Positions 7,701-48,645 are shown, numbered from the stretch's first letter. The stretch is 64,000 nucleotides of DNA from Candidatus Aminicenantes bacterium (GCA_030639305.1 DAOWCY010000002.1:14974-78973); one strand, 5' to 3'. The notes: generated from the sequence alone by a model not told the origin. Program-made: numbers and translations.

Positions 7701-9032
7701 ATGTTAGATAATCTGAGCGGAAAATTCAACAAAGTGATGAAGTACCTCAAAGGTGAGGCTAAGATCACCGAAGATAACATCAAAGTAGCCATGCGGGAGA
7801 TCAAGCTATCTCTTTTAGAAGCAGATGTGAACTTCAAAGTGGTCAAGCAATTTATTGCCAATGTGAAAGAAAAATCTTTAGGCGAGGAAGTACAGCAAAG
7901 CTTAACCCCCTACCAACAGGTAATAAAAATCGTTAAAAATGAATTAGAAACGATCCTGGGCACAGAACATAAAGAGCTGAACACCTCATCCCAAAAACCG
8001 GCGGTAATTATGCTGGTTGGACTCCAGGGTACGGGAAAAACCACCACTGCCGGTAAACTGGCTTATTATTTAAAAGAAGCAGGTAAATCTTCCCTGCTCT
8101 GTTCTCTCGATTTAAAAAGACTGGCGGCTGGAGAACAATTGGAAATAATCGCCGCAGATGTGGGCGTCAATTATTTTAAACCCTCCTCCGGTAAACTGAA
8201 ACAAATAGGTAAAGAACTCATTAAAAACGCACAAGAGTACGGTTACGATTACGTGATTGCCGATACCGCAGGCAGACTGCACATCGACGAAGAATTGATG
8301 AATGAACTCAAAGCGGTAAAAAATCTTCTCAACCCCGCCGAAGTTATCTTCGTAGGCGATTCGCTGACCGGCCAGGACGCAGTCAACTCAGCCCTTAGTT
8401 TCTCGGAGAAAATCGGCATCGACTCGATCGTGCTCACCAAAATAGACGCCGACGCCAGGGGCGGCGCAGCCCTTTCGATTGTAAGTGTCACGGGCAAACC
8501 GATCAAATTTATCGGCGTCGGAGAGAAACACAGCGATTTTCAGAAATTTTATCCCGACAGGCTGGCATCCCAGATACTCGGCATGGGCGACGTGCTCACA
8601 TTGATCGAAAAAGCAGAGCAGCAGTTCGACGAGAAAGAGGCCGAACAAATGGCCAAAAGGATGATGAGCAGTGAATTCACCTTAGAAGACTTCTCTTTTC
8701 AATTACAACAATTCTCTAAACTCGGCTCTATGGGCGATATTTTCAATATGCTGCCTAATATGGGCGTTAGCCCGGAGATGGCCGCCGCCAGCCTCGATGA
8801 CAATAAAATCAAACACATGATCGCCATCATCAGTTCCATGACCCCCAGGGAGAAAGAGAAACCGAAGATTATCAAAGGCAAAAGAAAAAACCGCATTGCC
8901 CGGGGTTCGGGCCGCCCGGTACAGGAAGTGAATCAACTGCTCAAGAAATATTTCGAAGCCGGCAAAGTGATGAAAAAACCTTTTTTCAGAAAGATGATGA
9001 AAAAATTTGACTTTATGTCAAAAATGGGGTAA
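7701..9032 (+). CDS. ffh: Signal recognition particle protein Ffh
   Basis: N-domain start MLDNLSGKF. GTPase P-loop GLQGTGKTTTAGKLA and DTAGR motifs. Met-rich M-domain at the C-terminus. Confidence 0.95.
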   Translation: MLDNLSGKFNKVMKYLKGEAKITEDNIKVAMREIKLSLLEADVNFKVVKQFIANVKEKSLGEEVQQSLTPYQQVIKIVKNELETILGTEHKELNTSSQKPAVIMLVGLQGTGKTTTAGKLAYYLKEAGKSSLLCSLDLKRLAAGEQLEIIAADVGVNYFKPSSGKLKQIGKELIKNAQEYGYDYVIADTAGRLHIDEELMNELKAVKNLLNPAEVIFVGDSLTGQDAVNSALSFSEKIGIDSIVLTKIDADARGGAALSIVSVTGKPIKFIGVGEKHSDFQKFYPDRLASQILGMGDVLTLIEKAEQQFDEKEAEQMAKRMMSSEFTLEDFSFQLQQFSKLGSMGDIFNMLPNMGVSPEMAAASLDDNKIKHMIAIISSMTPREKEKPKIIKGKRKNRIARGSGRPVQEVNQLLKKYFEAGKVMKKPFFRKMMKKFDFMSKMG

Positions 9033-9068: not shown

Positions 9069-9311
9069 ATGGTTGTGATAAGACTAACGCGACTTGGCAC
9101 GAGACACAAGCCTTTCTACAGGATAGTGGCGACGGACAGAAGAAGACCACGGGAATCACGTTATATCGATTTAATCGGGTACTATAATCCCATGCGGGAA
9201 GAACCTGATATAAAAATTAATTTTGATAAATATAATGAATGGATTCACAAAGGAGCAAAACCATCTGCAACAGTTAAATCGTTAATTAAGAAGGTTAAAC
9301 CAGATAATTAA
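9069..9311 (+). CDS. rpsP: 30S ribosomal protein S16
   Basis: [23 protein letters not shown] is the canonical S16 N-terminus. It follows ffh, as in the conserved operon. Confidence 0.95.
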
Positions 9312-9589: not shown

Positions 9590-10084
9590 TTGATTTCCCA
9601 CGGGAAAATTGTAAAAGTTCGAGGTAACAAGGGTGAGGTGGTACTGGTCACCTCCCCTGGACGGGATATATATATCCCTGGAAAAGGGGAAACTTTAACT
9701 TTAGAATCCGCAAAATATCGCAAGAGCTTTGAAATCGAATATGCCGGGAAAATAAGCGGGGCTTTAGTATTGAAATTTGTAAATGTAAATACGATAAATG
9801 AGGCATTAAAGTTAGTCGGGTATCATGTACCGGCATCCCCTGCTCCCGGGCAGAGTACCCCTGCAGGAGAGATAACCGGGTTTACCGTCCTGGATGTAAA
9901 TGGACAGAGGTGGGGGAAAATCGTAAATATCGACAGCAGTACCCTGAATAAAATCATCGAAGTCCAGGACGAAGAAAAAATCTTTTACGTACCTTTCACC
10001 GGCTCTATCGTGAAAGAGATTAATGAGGAGCAGGGAATCGTTATCATCGATCCCCCGGCCGGCTTGAAGGAATTGAACCGATGA
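9590..10084 (+). CDS. rimM: 16S rRNA processing protein RimM
   Basis: TTG start straight after the KH-protein stop. GKIVKVRGNKGEV matches the RimM N-terminal beta-barrel, and a PRC-barrel-like C-terminus follows. The operon position agrees. Confidence 0.8.
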   Translation: MISHGKIVKVRGNKGEVVLVTSPGRDIYIPGKGETLTLESAKYRKSFEIEYAGKISGALVLKFVNVNTINEALKLVGYHVPASPAPGQSTPAGEITGFTVLDVNGQRWGKIVNIDSSTLNKIIEVQDEEKIFYVPFTGSIVKEINEEQGIVIIDPPAGLKELNR

Positions 10085-11013
10085 AATTCTCGGTAGTAAC
10101 TATTTTTCCCGGGATGATAGAGAATTTCCTCCAATACGGCTTGATCTCCAAAGCCATCGAGAACAAAATAATAACCGTGAATGTATATGATCTAAGAGAA
10201 TTTTCCGGTAACAAGCACCGCAAAGTGGATGATAGACCCTTTGGCGGCGGAGCCGGTATGGTCATGACGCCCGCTCCCCTATTCACCGCAGTCGATCATA
10301 TCGAGGGGTCTGCGACCCCACCCTATGAGGGGCCTATAGATCATGTTCCCGGCCCGGTTGAGCAGAAAGAGGGATCGGGGGTTCCAGCTCCAGCCTCTGA
10401 ATATCCTGGAAAAACGGCGTCCGCGCCCTATGAGGGGCCTATAGATCATATTCCCGACCCGGTTGAGCAGACTGCGCCCCCAGCCTCTGAGAGTCCTGCG
10501 AAAGTAATTCTTTTTTCGGCCTATGCCGAATTGTTGACCCAGGAAAAAGTCAAAAGCCTATCTAAAGAAGACCATCTTATCCTGGTCTGCGGCCGTTACG
10601 AAGGCGTTGACCAGAGGTTCATAGACGAAAAAATAGACGAAGAAATATCTATCGGCGAATATGTCACCATGGGCGGAGAAGCCGCGGCGGAAGTCCTATT
10701 AGAGAGCGTCGCCCGCATGCTGCCCGGAGTGATCGGAAACCCCGAATCGGTGGAAACCGATTCCTTTTATAAAGAGGGCCAATACGGTTTCCCCCAGTAT
10801 ACCCAACCGCGGGATTATAAAGGTTTAAAAGTTCCCGAAGTACTGTTATCGGGGCATCATAAAGAAATATTAGATTGGCGAAAAAGCCCGCGGCGCGGGC
10901 GCCCTATAAGCCACTTCACGGGGGGACGGCGTCCCCACCCTCTAAGCCGCTTCGCGGCAAAAAGCGAAGAAGCCGGGGAATCCAAAACCCGCAGAGTAAT
11001 AAAGAAAACATAG
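10081..11013 (+). CDS. trmD: tRNA (guanine37-N1)-methyltransferase TrmD with an internal tandem-repeat insertion and a repeat-derived C-terminal tail
   Basis: MKFSVVTIFPGMIE, DDRPFGGGAGMVM and LVCGRYEGVDQRFID are TrmD SPOUT motifs. It is 310 aa against a typical length of about 245. The start overlaps the rimM stop. Confidence 0.85.
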   Translation: MKFSVVTIFPGMIENFLQYGLISKAIENKIITVNVYDLREFSGNKHRKVDDRPFGGGAGMVMTPAPLFTAVDHIEGSATPPYEGPIDHVPGPVEQKEGSGVPAPASEYPGKTASAPYEGPIDHIPDPVEQTAPPASESPAKVILFSAYAELLTQEKVKSLSKEDHLILVCGRYEGVDQRFIDEKIDEEISIGEYVTMGGEAAAEVLLESVARMLPGVIGNPESVETDSFYKEGQYGFPQYTQPRDYKGLKVPEVLLSGHHKEILDWRKSPRRGRPISHFTGGRRPHPLSRFAAKSEEAGESKTRRVIKKT

Positions 11014-11026
11014 AAGGAGTTAAATA

Positions 11027-12692: not shown

Positions 12693-12949
12693 AGCTATTT
12701 TTACCACGAAGGACACGAAGGGCACGAAGTCCCGTGGCACGGGAAGCCTATAAGGGGCTGCTTGTCGAACAAGGCGGCGGCCCCCGGTAGGAACCTGCAG
12801 CGCAGCTTACCAAAAGTTTTGATCAAACTTTTTTGAAGGTGCGGTGTGCCGCGGCCCCCAACTTCAATTTAATGGGGGCGTCACCCGGCAGGGACCTGCC
12901 GCGCAGCGGCTTAACGCCCCCCCACGCGAGTGGGGCCGCCGGAAGCAAG
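12693..12949. repeat. Composite intergenic repeat: module C (CCACGAAGGACACGAAGGGCACGAAG), a CCTATAAGG module and the long family-A hairpin element in reverse orientation
   Basis: Shares stretches of 20 to 100 nt with elements at 16935, 23906, 48340, 61487 and 63838. Hairpin-forming palindromes CCCCACGCGAGTGGGG and CAAAAGTTTTGATCAAACTTTT are present. Confidence 0.85.
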
Positions 12950-13127: not shown

Positions 13128-13156
13128 TTGACAAAACAATTAATAAATAATATATT
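13128..13156 (+). promoter_or_regulatory. Sigma70-like promoter for the vapBC-like operon
   Basis: TTGACA (13128-13133), a 17-nt spacer, then TATATT (13151-13156). GAGGT RBS and ATG at 13173 follow. Confidence 0.45.
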
Positions 13157-13172
13157 TATACTGAGGTAAAAA

Positions 13173-13382
13173 ATGAATTTTATGGTAAAAAAAGAGATTC
13201 ATGCAGCAGGCAAACTATTGGAAATCGAGATACCGCCGCACCTTTTAGGAAAGAATGTGGAAGTTATCATCAGGGAGAAAGAAACAAAAAAAGAAAAAAA
13301 CGAATTAGATGAATTTTTCTCCCGGTTTAATTACGATCTATCAGGTTTAGTTTTCGATAGAGCGGAGCTTCATGAGAGATAA
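13173..13382 (+). CDS. AbrB/MazE-fold antitoxin (VapB-like)
   Basis: 69 aa with the swapped-hairpin-like segment LLEIEIPPHLLGKNVEVIIRE. Its stop overlaps the start of the downstream PIN gene. Confidence 0.5.
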   Translation: MNFMVKKEIHAAGKLLEIEIPPHLLGKNVEVIIREKETKKEKNELDEFFSRFNYDLSGLVFDRAELHER

Positions 13383-13779
13383 AATATTTTTAGATTCGAA
13401 TGTCGTCATTTACTCCTTAGGAAGAGATGAAGTTAAAAAAAAGATTTCTGTAGATTTATTGAAAAATTATCCTACTATCAGCGCTCAGGTCGTTAATGAG
13501 GTAGTGAATGTTTCCCTTAAAAAGTTAAAGATGTCCAAGAATGAAGCTTTTGAAATCGGAAAGACCTTGATCCGGAGCTGCGAAGTTGTACCGGTAAATG
13601 ATAGGATTGTATTGAATGGATTTGAGATTTCGGAGAGATACCATCTTTCTTTTTGGGATAGTTTGATTATTTCCGCTGCTCTTGAAAATGATTGTTCAAT
13701 CATATATACCGAGGATTTACAGCATAATCAATTAATCGAAGATAGGTTATTAATCCGGGACCCTTATAAAGAAAAATAG
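13372..13779 (+). CDS. vapC: PIN-domain ribonuclease toxin (VapC-like)
   Basis: N-terminal IFLDSNVVIY with the conserved Asp, and a later WDSLI..YTEDLQH acidic cluster, fit the PIN fold. 135 aa. Overlaps the upstream antitoxin by 11 nt. Confidence 0.75.
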   Translation: MRDKIFLDSNVVIYSLGRDEVKKKISVDLLKNYPTISAQVVNEVVNVSLKKLKMSKNEAFEIGKTLIRSCEVVPVNDRIVLNGFEISERYHLSFWDSLIISAALENDCSIIYTEDLQHNQLIEDRLLIRDPYKEK

Positions 13780-13792
13780 TAGCCCCAACTAT

Positions 13793-13848
13793 CCCCTCTG
13801 GAGACTTGCCGGGAGGTGGCGCTGAGGGGCTTTTTTTGTTTTTTGCCC
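13793..13848 (+). terminator. Rho-independent terminator after vapC
   Basis: GC-rich stem CCCCTC...GAGGGGC followed by a T7 run at 13841-13848. Confidence 0.45.
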
Positions 13849-13974
13849 CGAAGCGACGGGGTGTGTTTGGCTGCGGATGCAGCACCCTTCTGTAAAATCT
13901 GTGGTCCTGTAATTTTGGTTTGTAATTTCTCCCCCGGTATGTTATATTAGGTTTTTATAGGCGGCGGAAATGGC

Positions 13975-14060
13975 GCGCCGGGACGCAGCTTAACAAAAGT
14001 TTTGCGGGGGTCCAGGGGGCAGTTTTTCAAAAGCGCCCCCTGGTCGCCGAAGGCAAGTTT
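13975..14060. repeat. Intergenic repeat copy (CAAAAGTTTTG.. / GGTCGCCGAAGGCAAG modules)
   Basis: Matches 41400-41480 and 19838-19880 (AAAAGTTTTTGGAAG..., GGTCGCCGAAGGCAA). It overlaps the annotated upstream part of the TIR ORF. Confidence 0.7.
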
Positions 14061-14064
14061 TTTA

Positions 14065-16926
14065 ATGAAAAAATGCATTATATTTATCAGTTACAGTCAC
14101 GAAGACATAGGCTGGAAAGAGAAGCTTTTAGAGCACTTGAAAGTTTTGGAAAAACAAAACATCTCCGCCCTGTGGCACGACCGGGATATTAAAGATGGCG
14201 AAAAATGGCGAGAGAAGATCGAAAAAGCCATCGACAGCGCACAAGCTGTTGTGCTGCTAATTTCGCCCGCTTTTTTGAGTTCCGATTTTATCAGCAAAGT
14301 CGAAGTGCCGCGCATATTAGAACGCCAACAAGAAGAAGGACTACTCGTATTCCCGGTTATAGTCAGGCCCTGCGCCTGGAAAGAGGTCGAATGGTTGAAG
14401 GCCATGCAGTTGACTGTTAAAGAGCCCCTGGCCGGGAAGAGCGATGCCCAAATCGACGAAGAGCTGGCCGCTTTGACCGAAAGAATCGCCCGGCGTTTCA
14501 AACAGGTCAAAGGGGCGGGCGAAAAACCCGAAGACACCGCCTATCCTCCCCCACCCCCGAAGAAGGTGGATATTAGCAAACTGCCTATCACCGGGCCGGA
14601 TTTGTTCGGCAGGGAAGAGCAATTAAAAATCCTGGATAATGTTTGGGTAGACACCGGCACCCGCGTGGTAACAGTCATCGCCTGGGGCGGGATGGGCAAA
14701 ACCGCTTTAGTAAGGGGCTGGCTGAACCGCCTGTCAAAAGAGAATTATCGCGGCGCGGCAAAAGTCTACTGCTGGTCTTTCTACAGCCAGGGGGCGGCGG
14801 AGGGCAAGCAGGCGTCGGCGGAACTTTTTATACAAGAGGCGCTGGTTTGGTTCGGCGACCCGGAGCCTGATGCAGGCACGGCGGAAGAGAAAGGGCGCCG
14901 GTTGGCGGAACTGGTTCGCCGTCAAAAGACCCTGTTGATTTTAGACGGATTAGAGCCTTTGCAGTTCCCGGCCCACGAAAACATCGCCTACCCGGGCCGT
15001 TTAAAAGACCGGGGGTTTTCCGTGCTGCTGCGGCAGTTAGCCGCCGCCCAGCCGGGATTGTGTGTGATCACAAGCCGCGAGCAGGTGACCGACCTGACTC
15101 CCCAAAAGGGTTCGTCGGTGCTGGAGATGGACTTAGACCAGCTTTCGCCCGAATCCGGGGCTGAGCTGCTGATCAGCCTGGGCGTCAAAGGAGCGGCAGC
15201 CGAAACTGCCTCTTCCCCCTCTGTGCCCTCTGTGTCCTCTGTGGCTAATCTTTTTAAAAAAGAGATGTTTCGCGCCGTGGAAGAGTACGAGGGTCATGCG
15301 CTGGCCTTAACCCTGTTGGGCAATTATCTATCGGTATGCTGCGATGGCGACATACGTAAGCGGGACACCGTGCCCAGCCTCACCGGGGAGCGCAGGCAGG
15401 GGGGGCATGCCATGCGGGTGATGGCTGCTTACCGGGAGCATCTAAAAGACAGCGCCGAATTGGATATCCTTTTTATGATGGGCCTTTTCGACCGCCCGGC
15501 CCCTGCCGGGGCTATCGAGGCGTTGCGCGCGGACCCGGTTTTACCCGGCGTCACCGGCAGGCTGCAAAACCTGTCAAAAGAAGACTGGCTTTACGTTTTA
15601 GACAACCTGCGCCGCGCCCATTTGCTGGCTAAAGAGAATCCTATCAGCCCCGGCAGTTTAGACTGCCATCCCCTGGTGCGGGAGTATTTCGGCGAACAGT
15701 TGGCGCAAGAGCAGCCGGAGGGTTTCAAAGCCGCCCACCAAAGGCTCTATAATTACTACAAAGACCTGCCGGAAAAAGATTTGCCCGACACCATCCAGGA
15801 AATGGAGCCGCTATTCGCGGCTATCAGCCACGGTTGCGCCGCCGGCCTGCACCGGGAAGCATTAGATGATGTGTACTGGAAGCGGGTGTGCCGGGAAAAC
15901 GAATATTTTATTTTCAACCAACTCGGCGCTTTCGGTTCTTTCCTGTCGGCCTTATCCCATTTTTTCGATACACCCTGGACCACCCCGGCAGCCGGGCTGA
16001 AAAAAGAAGACCAAGCTCTTTTGTTAAGCTGGGCCGCCTTCGGCCTGCGCGCCGTGGGCCGATTGGCAGAAGCGGCGGAGCCTATGAAAGCAAGCCTGGA
16101 AATGGCTGGTAATGATGAAGATTGGGGAAATGCCGCCATCGCTGCCTCCAACCTGAGCGAGCTACTGCTCACTTCAGGCCGGGTGGCTGAGGCGGTGGAT
16201 TATGGCCGCCAATGCGTAAAGTACGCCGACCGCGACGAGGATAAATTTCAAAAAGAAGTTAACCGCACCACCCTGGCCGATGCGCTGCATAACGCCGGGG
16301 AAATGGAGGAGGCGGAGGCCCTATTCCGGGAAGCGGAAGAGATGCAAAAAGAGCGCCAGCCGGAGTATATCTTTCTCTACTCCCTGAAGGGCTACCGGTT
16401 TTGCGACCTGCTGTTGTCCAAAGGGGAGCGCCGGGAGGTCTTGCAGCGGGTGGAGCAAACCCTGAAATGGGTAAGCAAAACAAATTGGCTTTTAACTATC
16501 GCCTTAGATAAACTCTCTTTAGGCCGGGCTTACACGATACAGGCCGGGGAACTAAGCCGGGCCGGGAAAACCGAAGCTGCGAAAGAGAGCCGCACCCGGG
16601 CCGGGGAGTTTTTCCAACTGGCCGTGGACGGGCTGCGGGAATCCGGGAACCAGGACGACGTACCCCGCGGCCTGCTGGCGCGGGCCGGGTATTACCGGGA
16701 AAGCGGGGAGTATGAGCAAGCCTGGACCGATATGGCCGAGGCCCTGGAGATCATCGAAGCCGGGGACATGAAGCTCTTTTTGGTGGATTACCATATCGAA
16801 ACGGCCCGCCTCAGCGCCGCCCAAAACCGCCCGCAAGGAGCGGCAGAGCACCGCCAAACCGCCAAAAAACTGATCGCCGAAACCGGCTATAAACGCCGCG
16901 AAAAAGAATTAAAAGAGCTCTCGTGA
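14065..16926 (+). CDS. TIR-NB-ARC-TPR STAND NTPase (bacterial NLR-like, candidate antiphage effector)
   Basis: The start was moved to ATG 14065 (MKKCIIFISYSHED) because the tracked start lies inside a repeat. TIR domain covers aa 1-150. Walker A is VIAWGGMGKTAL, Walker B is LLILDGLEP, and GHALALTLLGNYL is a GLPL-like motif. The C-terminal 400 aa or so are TPR-like helical repeats. Confidence 0.8.
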   Translation: MKKCIIFISYSHEDIGWKEKLLEHLKVLEKQNISALWHDRDIKDGEKWREKIEKAIDSAQAVVLLISPAFLSSDFISKVEVPRILERQQEEGLLVFPVIVRPCAWKEVEWLKAMQLTVKEPLAGKSDAQIDEELAALTERIARRFKQVKGAGEKPEDTAYPPPPPKKVDISKLPITGPDLFGREEQLKILDNVWVDTGTRVVTVIAWGGMGKTALVRGWLNRLSKENYRGAAKVYCWSFYSQGAAEGKQASAELFIQEALVWFGDPEPDAGTAEEKGRRLAELVRRQKTLLILDGLEPLQFPAHENIAYPGRLKDRGFSVLLRQLAAAQPGLCVITSREQVTDLTPQKGSSVLEMDLDQLSPESGAELLISLGVKGAAAETASSPSVPSVSSVANLFKKEMFRAVEEYEGHALALTLLGNYLSVCCDGDIRKRDTVPSLTGERRQGGHAMRVMAAYREHLKDSAELDILFMMGLFDRPAPAGAIEALRADPVLPGVTGRLQNLSKEDWLYVLDNLRRAHLLAKENPISPGSLDCHPLVREYFGEQLAQEQPEGFKAAHQRLYNYYKDLPEKDLPDTIQEMEPLFAAISHGCAAGLHREALDDVYWKRVCRENEYFIFNQLGAFGSFLSALSHFFDTPWTTPAAGLKKEDQALLLSWAAFGLRAVGRLAEAAEPMKASLEMAGNDEDWGNAAIAASNLSELLLTSGRVAEAVDYGRQCVKYADRDEDKFQKEVNRTTLADALHNAGEMEEAEALFREAEEMQKERQPEYIFLYSLKGYRFCDLLLSKGERREVLQRVEQTLKWVSKTNWLLTIALDKLSLGRAYTIQAGELSRAGKTEAAKESRTRAGEFFQLAVDGLRESGNQDDVPRGLLARAGYYRESGEYEQAWTDMAEALEIIEAGDMKLFLVDYHIETARLSAAQNRPQGAAEHRQTAKKLIAETGYKRREKELKELS

Positions 16927-16934
16927 TCTCTTTA

Positions 16935-17085
16935 GGGCTATTTTTTACCACGAAGGACACGAAGGGTACGAAGGGGGACTGGCGCGCCCTACCTATAAGC
17001 CGCTTCCTTAACCTCAGCCCTTCTTGAGCTCATCCTGAGACCTCTTGAGCTCCTCCTGAGCCCTTTCTTGAGCTCCTCCTGTATC
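16935..17085. repeat. Intergenic repeat: module C plus a CCTATAAGCCGCTTCC module plus three tandem 23-bp units of CTTGAGCTCMTCCTGA
   Basis: TTTTACCACGAAGGACACGAAGGGTACGAAGG is near-identical to 12700-12730. It fills the convergent gap between the TIR-STAND gene and cutA. Confidence 0.8.
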
Positions 17086-18467: not shown

Positions 18468-18552
18468 AAAATATTGGGGTCAAGTCTTGTTTTGCAACAT
18501 TTGAATAATAAAATATTGGGGTCAAGTCTTGTTTTGCAACATTTGAATAACA
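18468..18552. repeat. Perfect tandem direct repeat, 2 x about 42 bp (AAATATTGGGGTCAAGTCTTGTTTTGCAACATTTGAATAA)
   Basis: Two adjacent identical copies in the intergenic region upstream of the transporter gene at 18670. The minus-strand ORF 18274-18585 only reflects this repeat (YSNVAKQDLTPIF twice). Confidence 0.85.
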
Positions 18553-19971: not shown

Positions 19972-20268
19972 ATGACCAAAGATGAAGTGTTGAATTTTCT
20001 GAAAGAAAAAAAAGACGAGTTAAAAGATAAATTTGACATAGAAGAAATCGGTCTCTTCGGCAGTTATTCAAGAGGAGACTATAACAAAAAAAGCGACATC
20101 GATATCGTATATGTGCTGAAAGAAGTCAATAAATTCGGCTTTTCAGAATACTTGCGATTGGAGGAATTATTATCGATGCAGTTCAAGAAAAAAATTGAAC
20201 TGATCAATTATAAATACATGAATCCCATTATAAAACATAACGCAAAAAAGGAAATCATCTATGTTTGA
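19972..20268 (+). CDS. Nucleotidyltransferase antitoxin (MNT, HepT/MNT system)
   Basis: GSYSRGDYNKKSDIDIVYV is the GSx(n)DxD minimal nucleotidyltransferase motif. 98 aa. Overlaps the downstream HepT-like gene. Confidence 0.8.
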   Translation: MTKDEVLNFLKEKKDELKDKFDIEEIGLFGSYSRGDYNKKSDIDIVYVLKEVNKFGFSEYLRLEELLSMQFKKKIELINYKYMNPIIKHNAKKEIIYV

Positions 20269-20683
20269 TAAAAAAAACCTTGTCTACGTATTGACTATCC
20301 TGGAAAGCATTGAAAAAATCATGATTTACTCCCATGGGTTTGAAAACGCTGATGATTTTTTGTGGGCCAACCAACAACTAAACTTTAACGGAACGGTAAA
20401 TCTCTTAATTGCCATTGGCGAAGAATCAAAGAAAATCGATGTTAAACTTAAAGAGGAATTTCCCGGCATCGAGTGGAAAGCAATTGCTGGGATAAGAGAC
20501 AAACTATCTCACGATTATAGAGGAATCGATCCCAATATCCTATGGAATGTTATACAAAACAAATTAAATGATCTAAAATTGACTTTGATCAAAATGCTCG
20601 ATAGAATTAATTATGACAATGAAGCATTAACCGAAGCATTAAAAACAAAGTATTACTCTCATTTAAGTTATTTAGAATCCTAA
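20261..20683 (+). CDS. HepT-like (DUF86) toxin with RX4HXY motif
   Basis: RDKLSHDY fits R-x4-H-x-Y. 140 aa. Its start overlaps the MNT stop by 8 nt, the usual genetic coupling. Confidence 0.8.
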   Translation: MFDKKNLVYVLTILESIEKIMIYSHGFENADDFLWANQQLNFNGTVNLLIAIGEESKKIDVKLKEEFPGIEWKAIAGIRDKLSHDYRGIDPNILWNVIQNKLNDLKLTLIKMLDRINYDNEALTEALKTKYYSHLSYLES

Positions 20684-48242: not shown

Positions 48243-48645
48243 ACCCCGGTTCCTCGTTCCTCGGAACCACCTCCCGGCAAGTCTCGAAGAGGGGGATTTT
48301 GGTTTCTCGATCATCAAAAGCCTGTCTCTTTTGTTGCTTTGCTTTTTTCTTCGTGCCCTTCGTGTACTTCGTGGTTTATGCTTTTGCTTTTTCTCTGTGT
48401 GCTCTGTGGCTATATTAATTTCAAAGTAGGCCGGAAATGTTAAAAAAGGGGACAGGCCGGAAAGGTGCGGCGCACCCAGCCTATAAGGGGGTGTTACCTT
48501 CGCTTTTCTTGAATCATGAGTAAAAAAGGGGACAGGCCGGAAATGTTTTTCGTTTTTCATTTTTTTTCTTTTTTCTTCTTGCCCTTCTTTCCCTTCGTGG
48601 TAAAAAATAAAAAAGGGAACAGGCCGGAAAAGGCCGGAAAGGACC
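48195..48645. repeat. Cluster of four copies of the family-B unit AAAAAAGGGGACAGGCCGGAAA interleaved with the module-C reverse complement (TTCGTGCCCTTCGTGTACTTCGTGG) and module E (GGTGCGGCGCACCCAGCCTATAAGG)
   Basis: Copies at about 48203, 48438, 48522 and 48612, irregularly spaced (235, 84 and 90 nt). The first copy lies inside the signal-peptide region of the SBP gene. Confidence 0.8.

Follow-up and report, generated by a model that had tools for sequence, protein, structure and literature searches.

In a stretch of 64,000 nucleotides from a Candidatus Aminicenantes bacterium (GCA_030639305.1, DAOWCY010000002.1:14974-78973; the window below, with positions counted from its first letter), a real and intact gene has been found that encodes the one-protein architecture of a sensor resembling the receptors of nucleotide-binding leucine-rich-repeat type (NLR), i.e., an N-terminal TIR domain, a nucleoside triphosphatase (NTPase) of the STAND class and of AP-ATPase (NB-ARC-like) type, and a C-terminal sensor of tetratricopeptide repeats (TPR). 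The function proposed for its product, the TIR-STAND protein, is that of a stand-alone, single-polypeptide NLR-like sensor-effector, probably an NADase of abortive infection, and the probability of this reading is put at roughly 0.58. The domain identities, the predicted fold, the conserved catalytic-type residues, the size of the family and the swapping of effectors within it were established in the present analysis, which followed up a preliminary description of the region made from the sequence alone. The latter had joined the gene with an adjacent PIN toxin pair into a candidate antiphage defence islet and had regarded the combination as a possibly uncharacterised variant; neither of these two views is retained here.

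The gene, its domains and its family

The open reading frame (ORF) 14065-16926 runs uninterrupted through 953 codons and a stop codon, by which the gene of the preliminary description is confirmed, as intact and with a length of 953 rather than 954 aa, and the motifs quoted there were all recovered, namely FISYSHED at residues 7-14, GGMGKTAL at 208-215, LLILDGLEP at 290-298 and GHALALTLLGNYL at 410-422. The ATG at 14065 was taken as the start because every homologue begins at this position and because the longest ORF, which opens with a TTG at 14002, would add 21 codons that cross an intergenic repeat and find no support in homologues. The identical protein is deposited in GenBank as MCK4763291.1, a 'TIR domain-containing protein' of a Candidatus Aminicenantes metagenome-assembled genome (MAG), and the locus recurs on three further contigs. 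With 56.3%, the GC content of the gene belongs to the top 3% of windows of the same size, the whole window having 47.7%, which fits a horizontal acquisition.

The coordinates of the domains and motifs are collected in Table 1. In Pfam, TIR_2 matches residues 6-108 (E=1.5e-16), and TPR_12 and TPR_MalT together span residues 650-809; in the PADLOC library, the best matches of the TIR domain are the ThsB-type model (1.5e-24) and the SAVED-TIR model (4.2e-12). The NTPase is weak by sequence (AAA_16, 2.6e-7; NACHT, 5.7e-4; NB-ARC, 0.03, the last being below the Pfam threshold), and its assignment was made from the AlphaFold model that was built on an alignment of 64 sequences (mean predicted local distance difference test score, pLDDT, 87.3; predicted template-modelling score, pTM, 0.70). 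The model has the order of nucleotide-binding domain (NBD), helical domain and winged-helix domain (WHD), and its top Foldseek matches in the PDB are the archaeal STAND-TPR protein PH0952 (6mfv; 1.1e-12), Apaf-1 (2.9e-10), the plant TIR-type NLR RPP1 (3.4e-10), NRC4 and CED-4, the closest set spanning E values from 1e-12 to 1e-7; Avs3 comes only in 23rd place (rank 23) and NOD2 still later (rank 46). Judged by this predicted structure, the NTPase is placed clearly with Apaf-1 and the plant NLRs, in the AP-ATPase/NB-ARC branch. The family profile, moreover, aligns continuously from the TIR domain into the P-loop of Roq1, a plant TIR-type NLR (TNL), with 7.6e-11.

The TIR domain has the flavodoxin-like fold. 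In the phmmer alignments, its Glu80 pairs with E86 of Roq1 and with the Glu of the 'YEL' motif of AbTir, both of which are catalytic glutamates, and it is conserved in at least 90% of the 64 family members; in the same set, K212, D294, R338 and H535 are invariant and GHALAL is nearly so. Thus, the TIR/NB-ARC-like STAND/TPR architecture read beforehand from the sequence is borne out, by Pfam matches for the TIR and TPR regions and by the predicted structure for the NTPase, together with the catalytic-type glutamate of the TIR domain. Two outcomes had been named in advance as fatal to the reading, the lack of a TIR match and a P-loop of a different ATPase class, and neither was observed.

The family of the protein is very large and well conserved. 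Over 3,200 proteins scored significantly in a word-indexed search, and the best 120 of these, which were inspected, are mostly full-length relatives of 900-1,000 aa with about 50% identity; those with a named source come from Aminicenantes, Omnitrophota, Desulfobacterales, Planctomycetota, and ANME-1 and other Halobacteriota archaea. In a scan of GTDB with one genome per species, at least 587 loci were found, of which 79 were retained; these are spread over many phyla of bacteria and several lineages of archaea, with Methanosarcinales, Methanoperedens and a MAG of Nanoarchaeia among them. The GTDB loci come essentially all from MAGs, and some genomes have several paralogues, a tandem pair of which is represented by L065/L072. 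When the sensor alone (residues 561-953) was used in an exhaustive HMMER search (E<=1e-30), 1,540 clusters at 50% identity were obtained, in which the sensor lies nearly always at about residues 550-950 of a protein of 920-1,000 aa. Compared pairwise, 64 members have on average 46% identity in the TIR domain, 62% in the NBD and 55% in the TPR region; the latter value is close to that of the NTPase, which indicates that the sensor is under strong purifying selection.

Effector displacement and the proposed function

The strongest indication of a putative role in conflict or immunity is, as read from the sequences, the displacement of the effector. In relatives whose NTPase and sensor agree at 50-65% identity, TIR gives way to other N-terminal domains, such as the Mrr_cat restriction endonuclease (P0004, P0007 and L057), SEFIR (P0119 and L044), the PNP_UDP_1 phosphorylase (six loci, L049, L052 and L082-L085) and the adaptor-type EAD7 (L038); others combine a ParA-like or HATPase_c_4 domain with TIR or have N-terminal domains that gave no match. 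Effector displacement was used by Kaur et al. as a criterion for counter-invader systems (PMC8195603), and Lee et al. relied on it as the first of their two criteria when calling STAND clades defence-associated, the second one being the genomic neighbourhood (PMC13581612); effectors of the immune type, in the sense of the latter work, are present in the family. The swapping of N-terminal effectors among close relatives therefore strengthens the reading as an immune receptor. Of what was claimed beforehand, the receptor stands as plausible, now with SEFIR, Mrr_cat, PNP_UDP_1 and EAD7 as interchangeable effectors, and the antiphage role is one that we infer.

The neighbourhood was sampled through 150 neighbouring ORFs from 33 loci (39 candidate loci). 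Neighbours of conflict type are few and comprise a PtuA-like ATPase (2.9e-136), NsnB/AriA-like ATPases, two further TIR proteins and four AAA-ATPase_like/PDDEXK_9 proteins. In a Nitrospirae MAG (L065, 1257-15528), two family paralogues stand in tandem, and one of them has an additional ParA-like domain at its N-terminus; after the two comes a protein of 1,782 aa that combines DUF7379/lipase-like, CHAT protease and TPR-S domains. A Proteobacteria MAG (L066, 6001-14403) has a similar giant lipase-CHAT-TPR-S protein after its family gene. The arrangement of tandem paralogues and giant CHAT-TPR-S proteins may be a recurrent cluster of conflict genes.

STAND proteins with TPR sensors have been described as autoinhibited in the ADP-bound state (PMC6468293), and such proteins sense phage proteins and oligomerise, as in the ligand-induced oligomerisation of the Avs proteins (PMC13581612). 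For the TIR-STAND protein, we infer every step of the mechanism that follows the assignment of the domains. At rest, the protein would be kept closed by its MalT-like TPR superhelix together with the NTPase in the ADP-bound form. A conserved ligand, most likely a protein of viral origin or a molecule that arises from the infection, would bind to the TPR sensor and so release the autoinhibition, and the exchange of the nucleotide at the P-loop would lead to oligomerisation, which would gather the N-terminal TIR domains into NAD+-cleaving sites around Glu80. The consumption of NAD+ would then arrest or kill the infected cell, i.e., result in abortive infection.

Alternatively, the TIR domain might serve in signalling, by producing an ADP-ribose-derived messenger, like that of Thoeris ThsB and the plant TNLs, for the activation of an effector encoded elsewhere. 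The best match in the defence library, the ThsB-type model (1.5e-24), would agree with this, as would the adaptor-type EAD7 domain that replaces TIR in L038 and implies a partner recruited in trans. However, a gene for a receptor, be it ThsA-like, SLOG, Macro or another, was found neither beside the TIR gene nor beside its relatives, there is no conserved neighbour at all among the relatives, and the replacement domains are mostly self-sufficient killers (the Mrr nuclease and the PNP phosphorylase), so that the N-terminal domain points to a terminal effector. A messenger-producing TIR domain is thus rather unlikely.

Several observations weigh against the proposed receptor. The Walker B motif (LLILDG) has Gly in the place of the second acidic residue. 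In the PADLOC scan, only TIR-domain models responded and nothing matched residues 150-953 at E<=0.1; the library contains AVAST/Avs models, and from the lack of a PADLOC v2 match for the NTPase and the sensor it follows that the protein is not an Avs type represented in PADLOC v2. Similarly, when the three proteins of the locus were scanned with PADLOC and NCBIfam, TIR-domain matches alone were obtained, with no assignment at the level of a system. The viral contigs of IMG/VR contain no family member, the plasmids of PLSDB gave only TIR-only or distant NB-ARC matches and no member, and no experimental work on any member was found in the literature. The association with defence islands is weak in the neighbourhood sample, in which housekeeping or metabolic genes make up most of the 150 ORFs and no partner is conserved, the sample having no matched control. 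Finally, the short sensor, of about 390 aa and MalT/Rap-like, is conserved nearly to the degree of the NTPase, and the copy in the window bears a repeat-derived insert of 21 residues beside the NBD.

A short and conserved sensor of the MalT/Rap-like kind suits a small molecule or a peptide, as its ligand, no less well than a structural protein of a phage. The protein might, therefore, be a switch for death or dormancy outside antiviral defence, the compact and highly conserved TPR sensor of which would respond to a small molecule or peptide from within the cell or from the environment, e.g., in stress or in kin or social control. This is at odds with the effector swapping, the paralogues within single genomes and the patchy spread suggestive of horizontal transfer, which are typical of a conflict system, and with the occasional clustering with CHAT/TPR-S, PtuA-like and TIR genes; the characterised Avs sensors, too, are conserved, since they recognise conserved folds (PMC13581612). 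Only a minor share of the probability is accordingly left to a non-antiviral switch. An extension of the receptor reading that we offer tentatively, and regard as improbable in its entirety, would make the family a pan-prokaryotic NLR, spread over many phyla of bacteria and over methanogen/ANME-type and other archaea, with an unusually compact and strongly conserved sensor for a small molecule, a peptide or a universally conserved infection cue instead of a phage structural protein, and perhaps the closest prokaryotic counterpart of the plant TIR-NBARC-TPR proteins (TNPs); if true, the sensing of a small molecule, a peptide or a conserved cue would set it apart from the characterised Avs families.

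By reason of the 21-residue insert, the copy in the window might also be regarded as inactive, i.e., as a decaying gene broken by the insertion of a repeat. The insert, which stands between the NBD and the helical domain and is partly of low confidence in the AlphaFold model (pLDDT <50 at residues 379-383), is found only in the TIR-STAND protein and its 72%-identical paralogue and is missing in the 62 other members. However, the frame of 953 codons is intact with all conserved motifs kept, and the insert, which preserves the frame, occupies a loop; since the paralogue, itself intact, carries it as well, it is apparently tolerated. An inactive copy is, therefore, quite improbable. The 39-nt core of the insert (15207-15245) is 100% identical in the paralogue (contig L167, ~9200-9260) and the flanking codons have diverged; contig L167 comes from a metagenome that also contains the TIR-STAND locus. 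The insert is a dispersed repeat of the 'CTCTGTG' type, for which independent insertion, gene conversion and selection at the nucleic-acid level are the candidate causes.

The PIN pair, the repeats and the insertion site

The pair upstream of the TIR gene had been described as VapB/VapC-like, which holds for the PIN toxin (Table 1); the 'VapB-like' label is positional only, because the 69-aa ORF matched no family in Pfam, NCBIfam or PADLOC even at E<=10. The promoter ascribed to the pair was found again as a promoter-like site, such sites being no more numerous in the region than in shuffled sequence. No intrinsic terminator was detected by a scan between the PIN and TIR genes, and the stretch 13775-13860 folds no better than shuffled sequence (z=-0.8). 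The TIR gene has a promoter-like site in its own upstream region, the ~200 nt of which are 73% identical to the upstream sequence of the paralogue on L167, the -10-like box included, and also contain a repeat; the gene thus carries its own control region.

The view that the pair and the TIR-STAND gene form a single two-module defence islet could lean on their common strand, on the distance of 285 bp, on their position in a segment that has a direct repeat on either side, at a distance of 4,244 bp from one another, and on the fact that relatives sometimes adjoin other toxin-antitoxin pairs (MNT/HepT with CopG at L001; PIN with HTH at L002). However, the linkage is not conserved. The toxin-antitoxin families vary between the relatives, and the paralogue on L167, which lies between a peptidase and an amidohydrolase gene, has no adjoining pair, like most of the relatives; L001, L003 and L007 have no PIN pair, at L002 the PIN gene is ~2.3 kb off behind other genes, with HTH genes nearer, and other relatives adjoin heme-synthesis genes or a sulfotransferase gene. 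PIN and HepT families do not recur among the 150 neighbours. Furthermore, the GC content of the pair is 34-35% vs. 56% of the TIR gene, the promoter-like regions are separate, with that of the TIR gene travelling together with the gene, and a third copy of the bracketing repeat occurs at another place in the window. The islet is thus very improbable, being largely refuted already by the lack of a conserved linkage, and the PIN pair is better taken as a separate selfish or accessory module, a chance neighbour in the same variable spot. A second toxin-antitoxin pair, of the MNT/HepT type (NTP_transf_2, 7e-15; HepT-like, 2.5e-17) and with a GC content of 31-33%, lies at 19972-20683, ~3 kb downstream; a pair of the same type stands directly upstream of the family member at L001.

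The repeat elements announced on both sides of the gene were found after the stop codons of FTCD and of the TIR gene. The bracketing repeat, ACCACGAAGGACACGAAGGGCACGAAG, of 32-37 nt, has three copies in the window, where none is expected by chance. As attachment sites, the direct repeats were rejected, there being no integrase; since the third copy lies at 48349 and relatives of the repeat recur around the paralogue, they are dispersed repeats rather than attachment sites. A CACAGAG-type variant that resembles the insert in the TIR gene adjoins the third copy. The first 21 nt of an element of ~105 nt form another direct repeat, which brackets the toxin-antitoxin pair with a spacing of 1,183 nt, so that the pair may have been inserted into the leader region of the TIR gene. 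A G+C-rich element with a T-run, GGTGGCGCTGAGGGGCTTTTTTTGTTTTTTGCCCCGAAGCGACGGGGTGTGT, may be a mobile terminator-like element, with a predicted fold no better than that of shuffled sequence.

The accessory character of the spot was upheld on comparison with related contigs. Among 80 FTCD loci fetched from metagenomes, 22 keep the order rimM-trmD-FTCD, and in all 22 no cutA, PIN or TIR-STAND gene was found within 8 kb downstream; the site after FTCD is therefore variable. A clean pre-insertion (empty) site was not found among these 22 contigs. For annotation, the outcome is a probable stand-alone defence gene, a separate PIN module and a variable, repeat-rich insertion site after FTCD.

Two further irregularities were noted in the surroundings. 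Inside the trmD ORF (10081-11013) there seems to be a duplicated insert rich in proline (ATPPYEGPIDHVPGPVEQ ... SAPYEGPIDHIPDPVEQ), and the ORF seems to end in a basic C-terminal tail; the tblastn alignments with relatives are split or shortened there. At 18468-18551, between a 270-aa lipoprotein-like gene and a gene for a transporter of the major facilitator superfamily, the intergenic region holds a 42-nt tandem duplication, the two copies of which are 98% identical.

Table 1. Positions of the TIR-STAND-TPR gene, its domains, the adjacent pair and the repeats in the window (contig L167 where stated).
Feature	Position	Strand	Remark
TIR/AP-ATPase (NB-ARC-like) STAND/TPR gene	14065..16926	+	ATG start, 953 aa, stop codon included
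TIR domain, residues 1-150	14065..14514	+	putative catalytic Glu80, codon 14302-14304
STAND NTPase (NBD, helical domain, winged-helix), residues ~172-560	14578..15744	+	assigned by motifs and Foldseek
Walker A, G208-T213	14686-14703	+	GGMGKT, K212
Walker B, LLILD294	14932-14946	+	motif position
Sensor-1-like TSR338	15070-15078	+	motif position
In-frame 21-codon insert (AAAETASSPSVPSVSSVANLF)	15193..15255	+	dispersed-repeat origin; between NBD and first helical domain
GLPL-like GHALAL, residues 410-415	from 15292	+	Pro of GLPL replaced by Ala
MHD-like D533-C-H535-P	within 15658-15690	+	His of the winged-helix domain
C-terminal helical/TPR sensor, residues 561-953	15745..16923	+	TPR superhelix proper from ~residue 646
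TIR gene upstream region	13860..14064	+	promoter-like site and truncated dispersed repeat
TIR-gene promoter-like site, TTGTAA-17-TATATT with TG	13920-13948	+	promoter scan
Toxin-antitoxin-like pair	13173..13779	+	independent neighbour of the TIR gene
69-aa ORF	13173-13382	+	overlaps the PIN start by 11 nt
PIN toxin gene	13372-13779	+	Pfam PIN, E=4.3e-15
Promoter-like site of the pair, TTGACA-17-TATATT	13128-13156	+	11/12 consensus positions
Left repeat copy, TTTTTACCACGAAGGACACGAAGGGCACGAAG	12698..12729	+	directly after FTCD stop
Right repeat copy	16942..16973	+	directly after TIR-STAND stop
Third repeat copy	48349-48375	-	same 64-kb window
~105-nt element (CGCAGCTTAcCAAAAGTTTTGATCAAACTTTT...GGTGCGG...CCCGGCAGGG)	12801-12905		upstream of the toxin-antitoxin pair
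~105-nt element, truncated copy	13984-14050		just upstream of the TIR-gene ATG
~105-nt element, full copy	L167 ~7960-8065		upstream of the paralogue
G+C-rich element and T-run, GGTGGCGCTGAGGGGCTTTTTTTGTTTTTTGCCCCGAAGCGACGGGGTGTGT	13818-13870; L167 ~10975-11025		after PIN stop; after paralogue stop

Comparison with known systems

The TIR-STAND-TPR protein is not a new kind of system but a part of a large family of a known kind, and the expectation of an uncharacterised variant, understood as a new architecture, has been dropped. TIR-NB-TPR proteins are known from bacteria, fungi and plants (PMC9806590), AP-ATPase-TPR conflict proteins are also on record (PMC8195603), and there are large-scale catalogues of STAND clades in which effectors are exchanged (PMC13581612, PMC8195603), in particular in the 2026 survey of Lee et al., with its 589 prokaryotic STAND clades, 198 of them defence-associated, and 684 sensor clusters (PMC13581612). 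If the proposed function is right, the family would be one of the larger experimentally unexplored families of prokaryotic NLR-like receptors, almost all of it from uncultured organisms; of interest to specialists are the small, conserved MalT-like sensor and the spread of the family into the archaea.

With the Avs and other bacterial NLR-like proteins (Avs1-24; PMC13581612), the TIR-STAND protein shares, in one polypeptide, a swappable N-terminal effector (TIR, a nuclease of the Mrr/Cap4 type and others), a STAND NTPase and a TPR-like sensor, as well as the expected logic by which a ligand would lead to oligomerisation, activation of the effector and cell death. It differs from them in that its NTPase and sensor have no match in PADLOC v2, the predicted structure of the NTPase resembles Apaf-1 and the plant NLRs more closely than it does Avs3, the MalT-like sensor, of ~390 aa, is far smaller, and the family members found all come from uncultured lineages. 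Thoeris ThsB, TIR-SAVED and other bacterial TIR effectors likewise have a TIR domain with a conserved Glu, but they are activated by nucleotide signals or make them and have partner genes, whereas here the TIR domain and its STAND sensor form one protein, with no conserved partner gene beside the family. An 824-aa 'tetratricopeptide repeat protein' of the PDB (9m0n/9umd), for which no publication was found, has an N-terminal TIR domain that matches the TIR profile of the family (E=4.5e-4), the match being confined to this domain; it may be a related TIR-TPR defence protein.

PH0952 of Pyrococcus horikoshii (6mfv) and MalT are STAND proteins with TPR/SUPR sensors that have no TIR domain (PMC6468293), and MalT is a maltotriose-sensing transcription activator, while the TIR-STAND protein is without a DNA-binding domain. 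Apaf-1/CED-4, RPP1 and Roq1 have in common with it the AP-ATPase/NB-ARC fold with NBD, first helical domain (HD1) and WHD, and are distinguished by WD40 or leucine-rich-repeat sensors in place of TPR and by an identity of only 14-16% to the prokaryotic protein. The plant TNPs, compared here by the published description of ZmTNP-IIa (PMC9806590), have the same domain order, the equivalents of the P-loop, TTR/TSR, GLPL and MHD motifs and a catalytic-type TIR glutamate, and belong to another kingdom. The cell death caused by ZmTNP-IIa requires the TIR glutamates and the P-loop, and the likeness of bacterial TIR-NB-TPR proteins to the TNPs was reported for the NTPase only, not for the TIR or TPR regions (PMC9806590). 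Thus, the domain order is shared with plant proteins whose function is enigmatic, and the small, highly conserved sensor of the prokaryotic family could suit as a model of how STAND proteins with TPR sensors are triggered.

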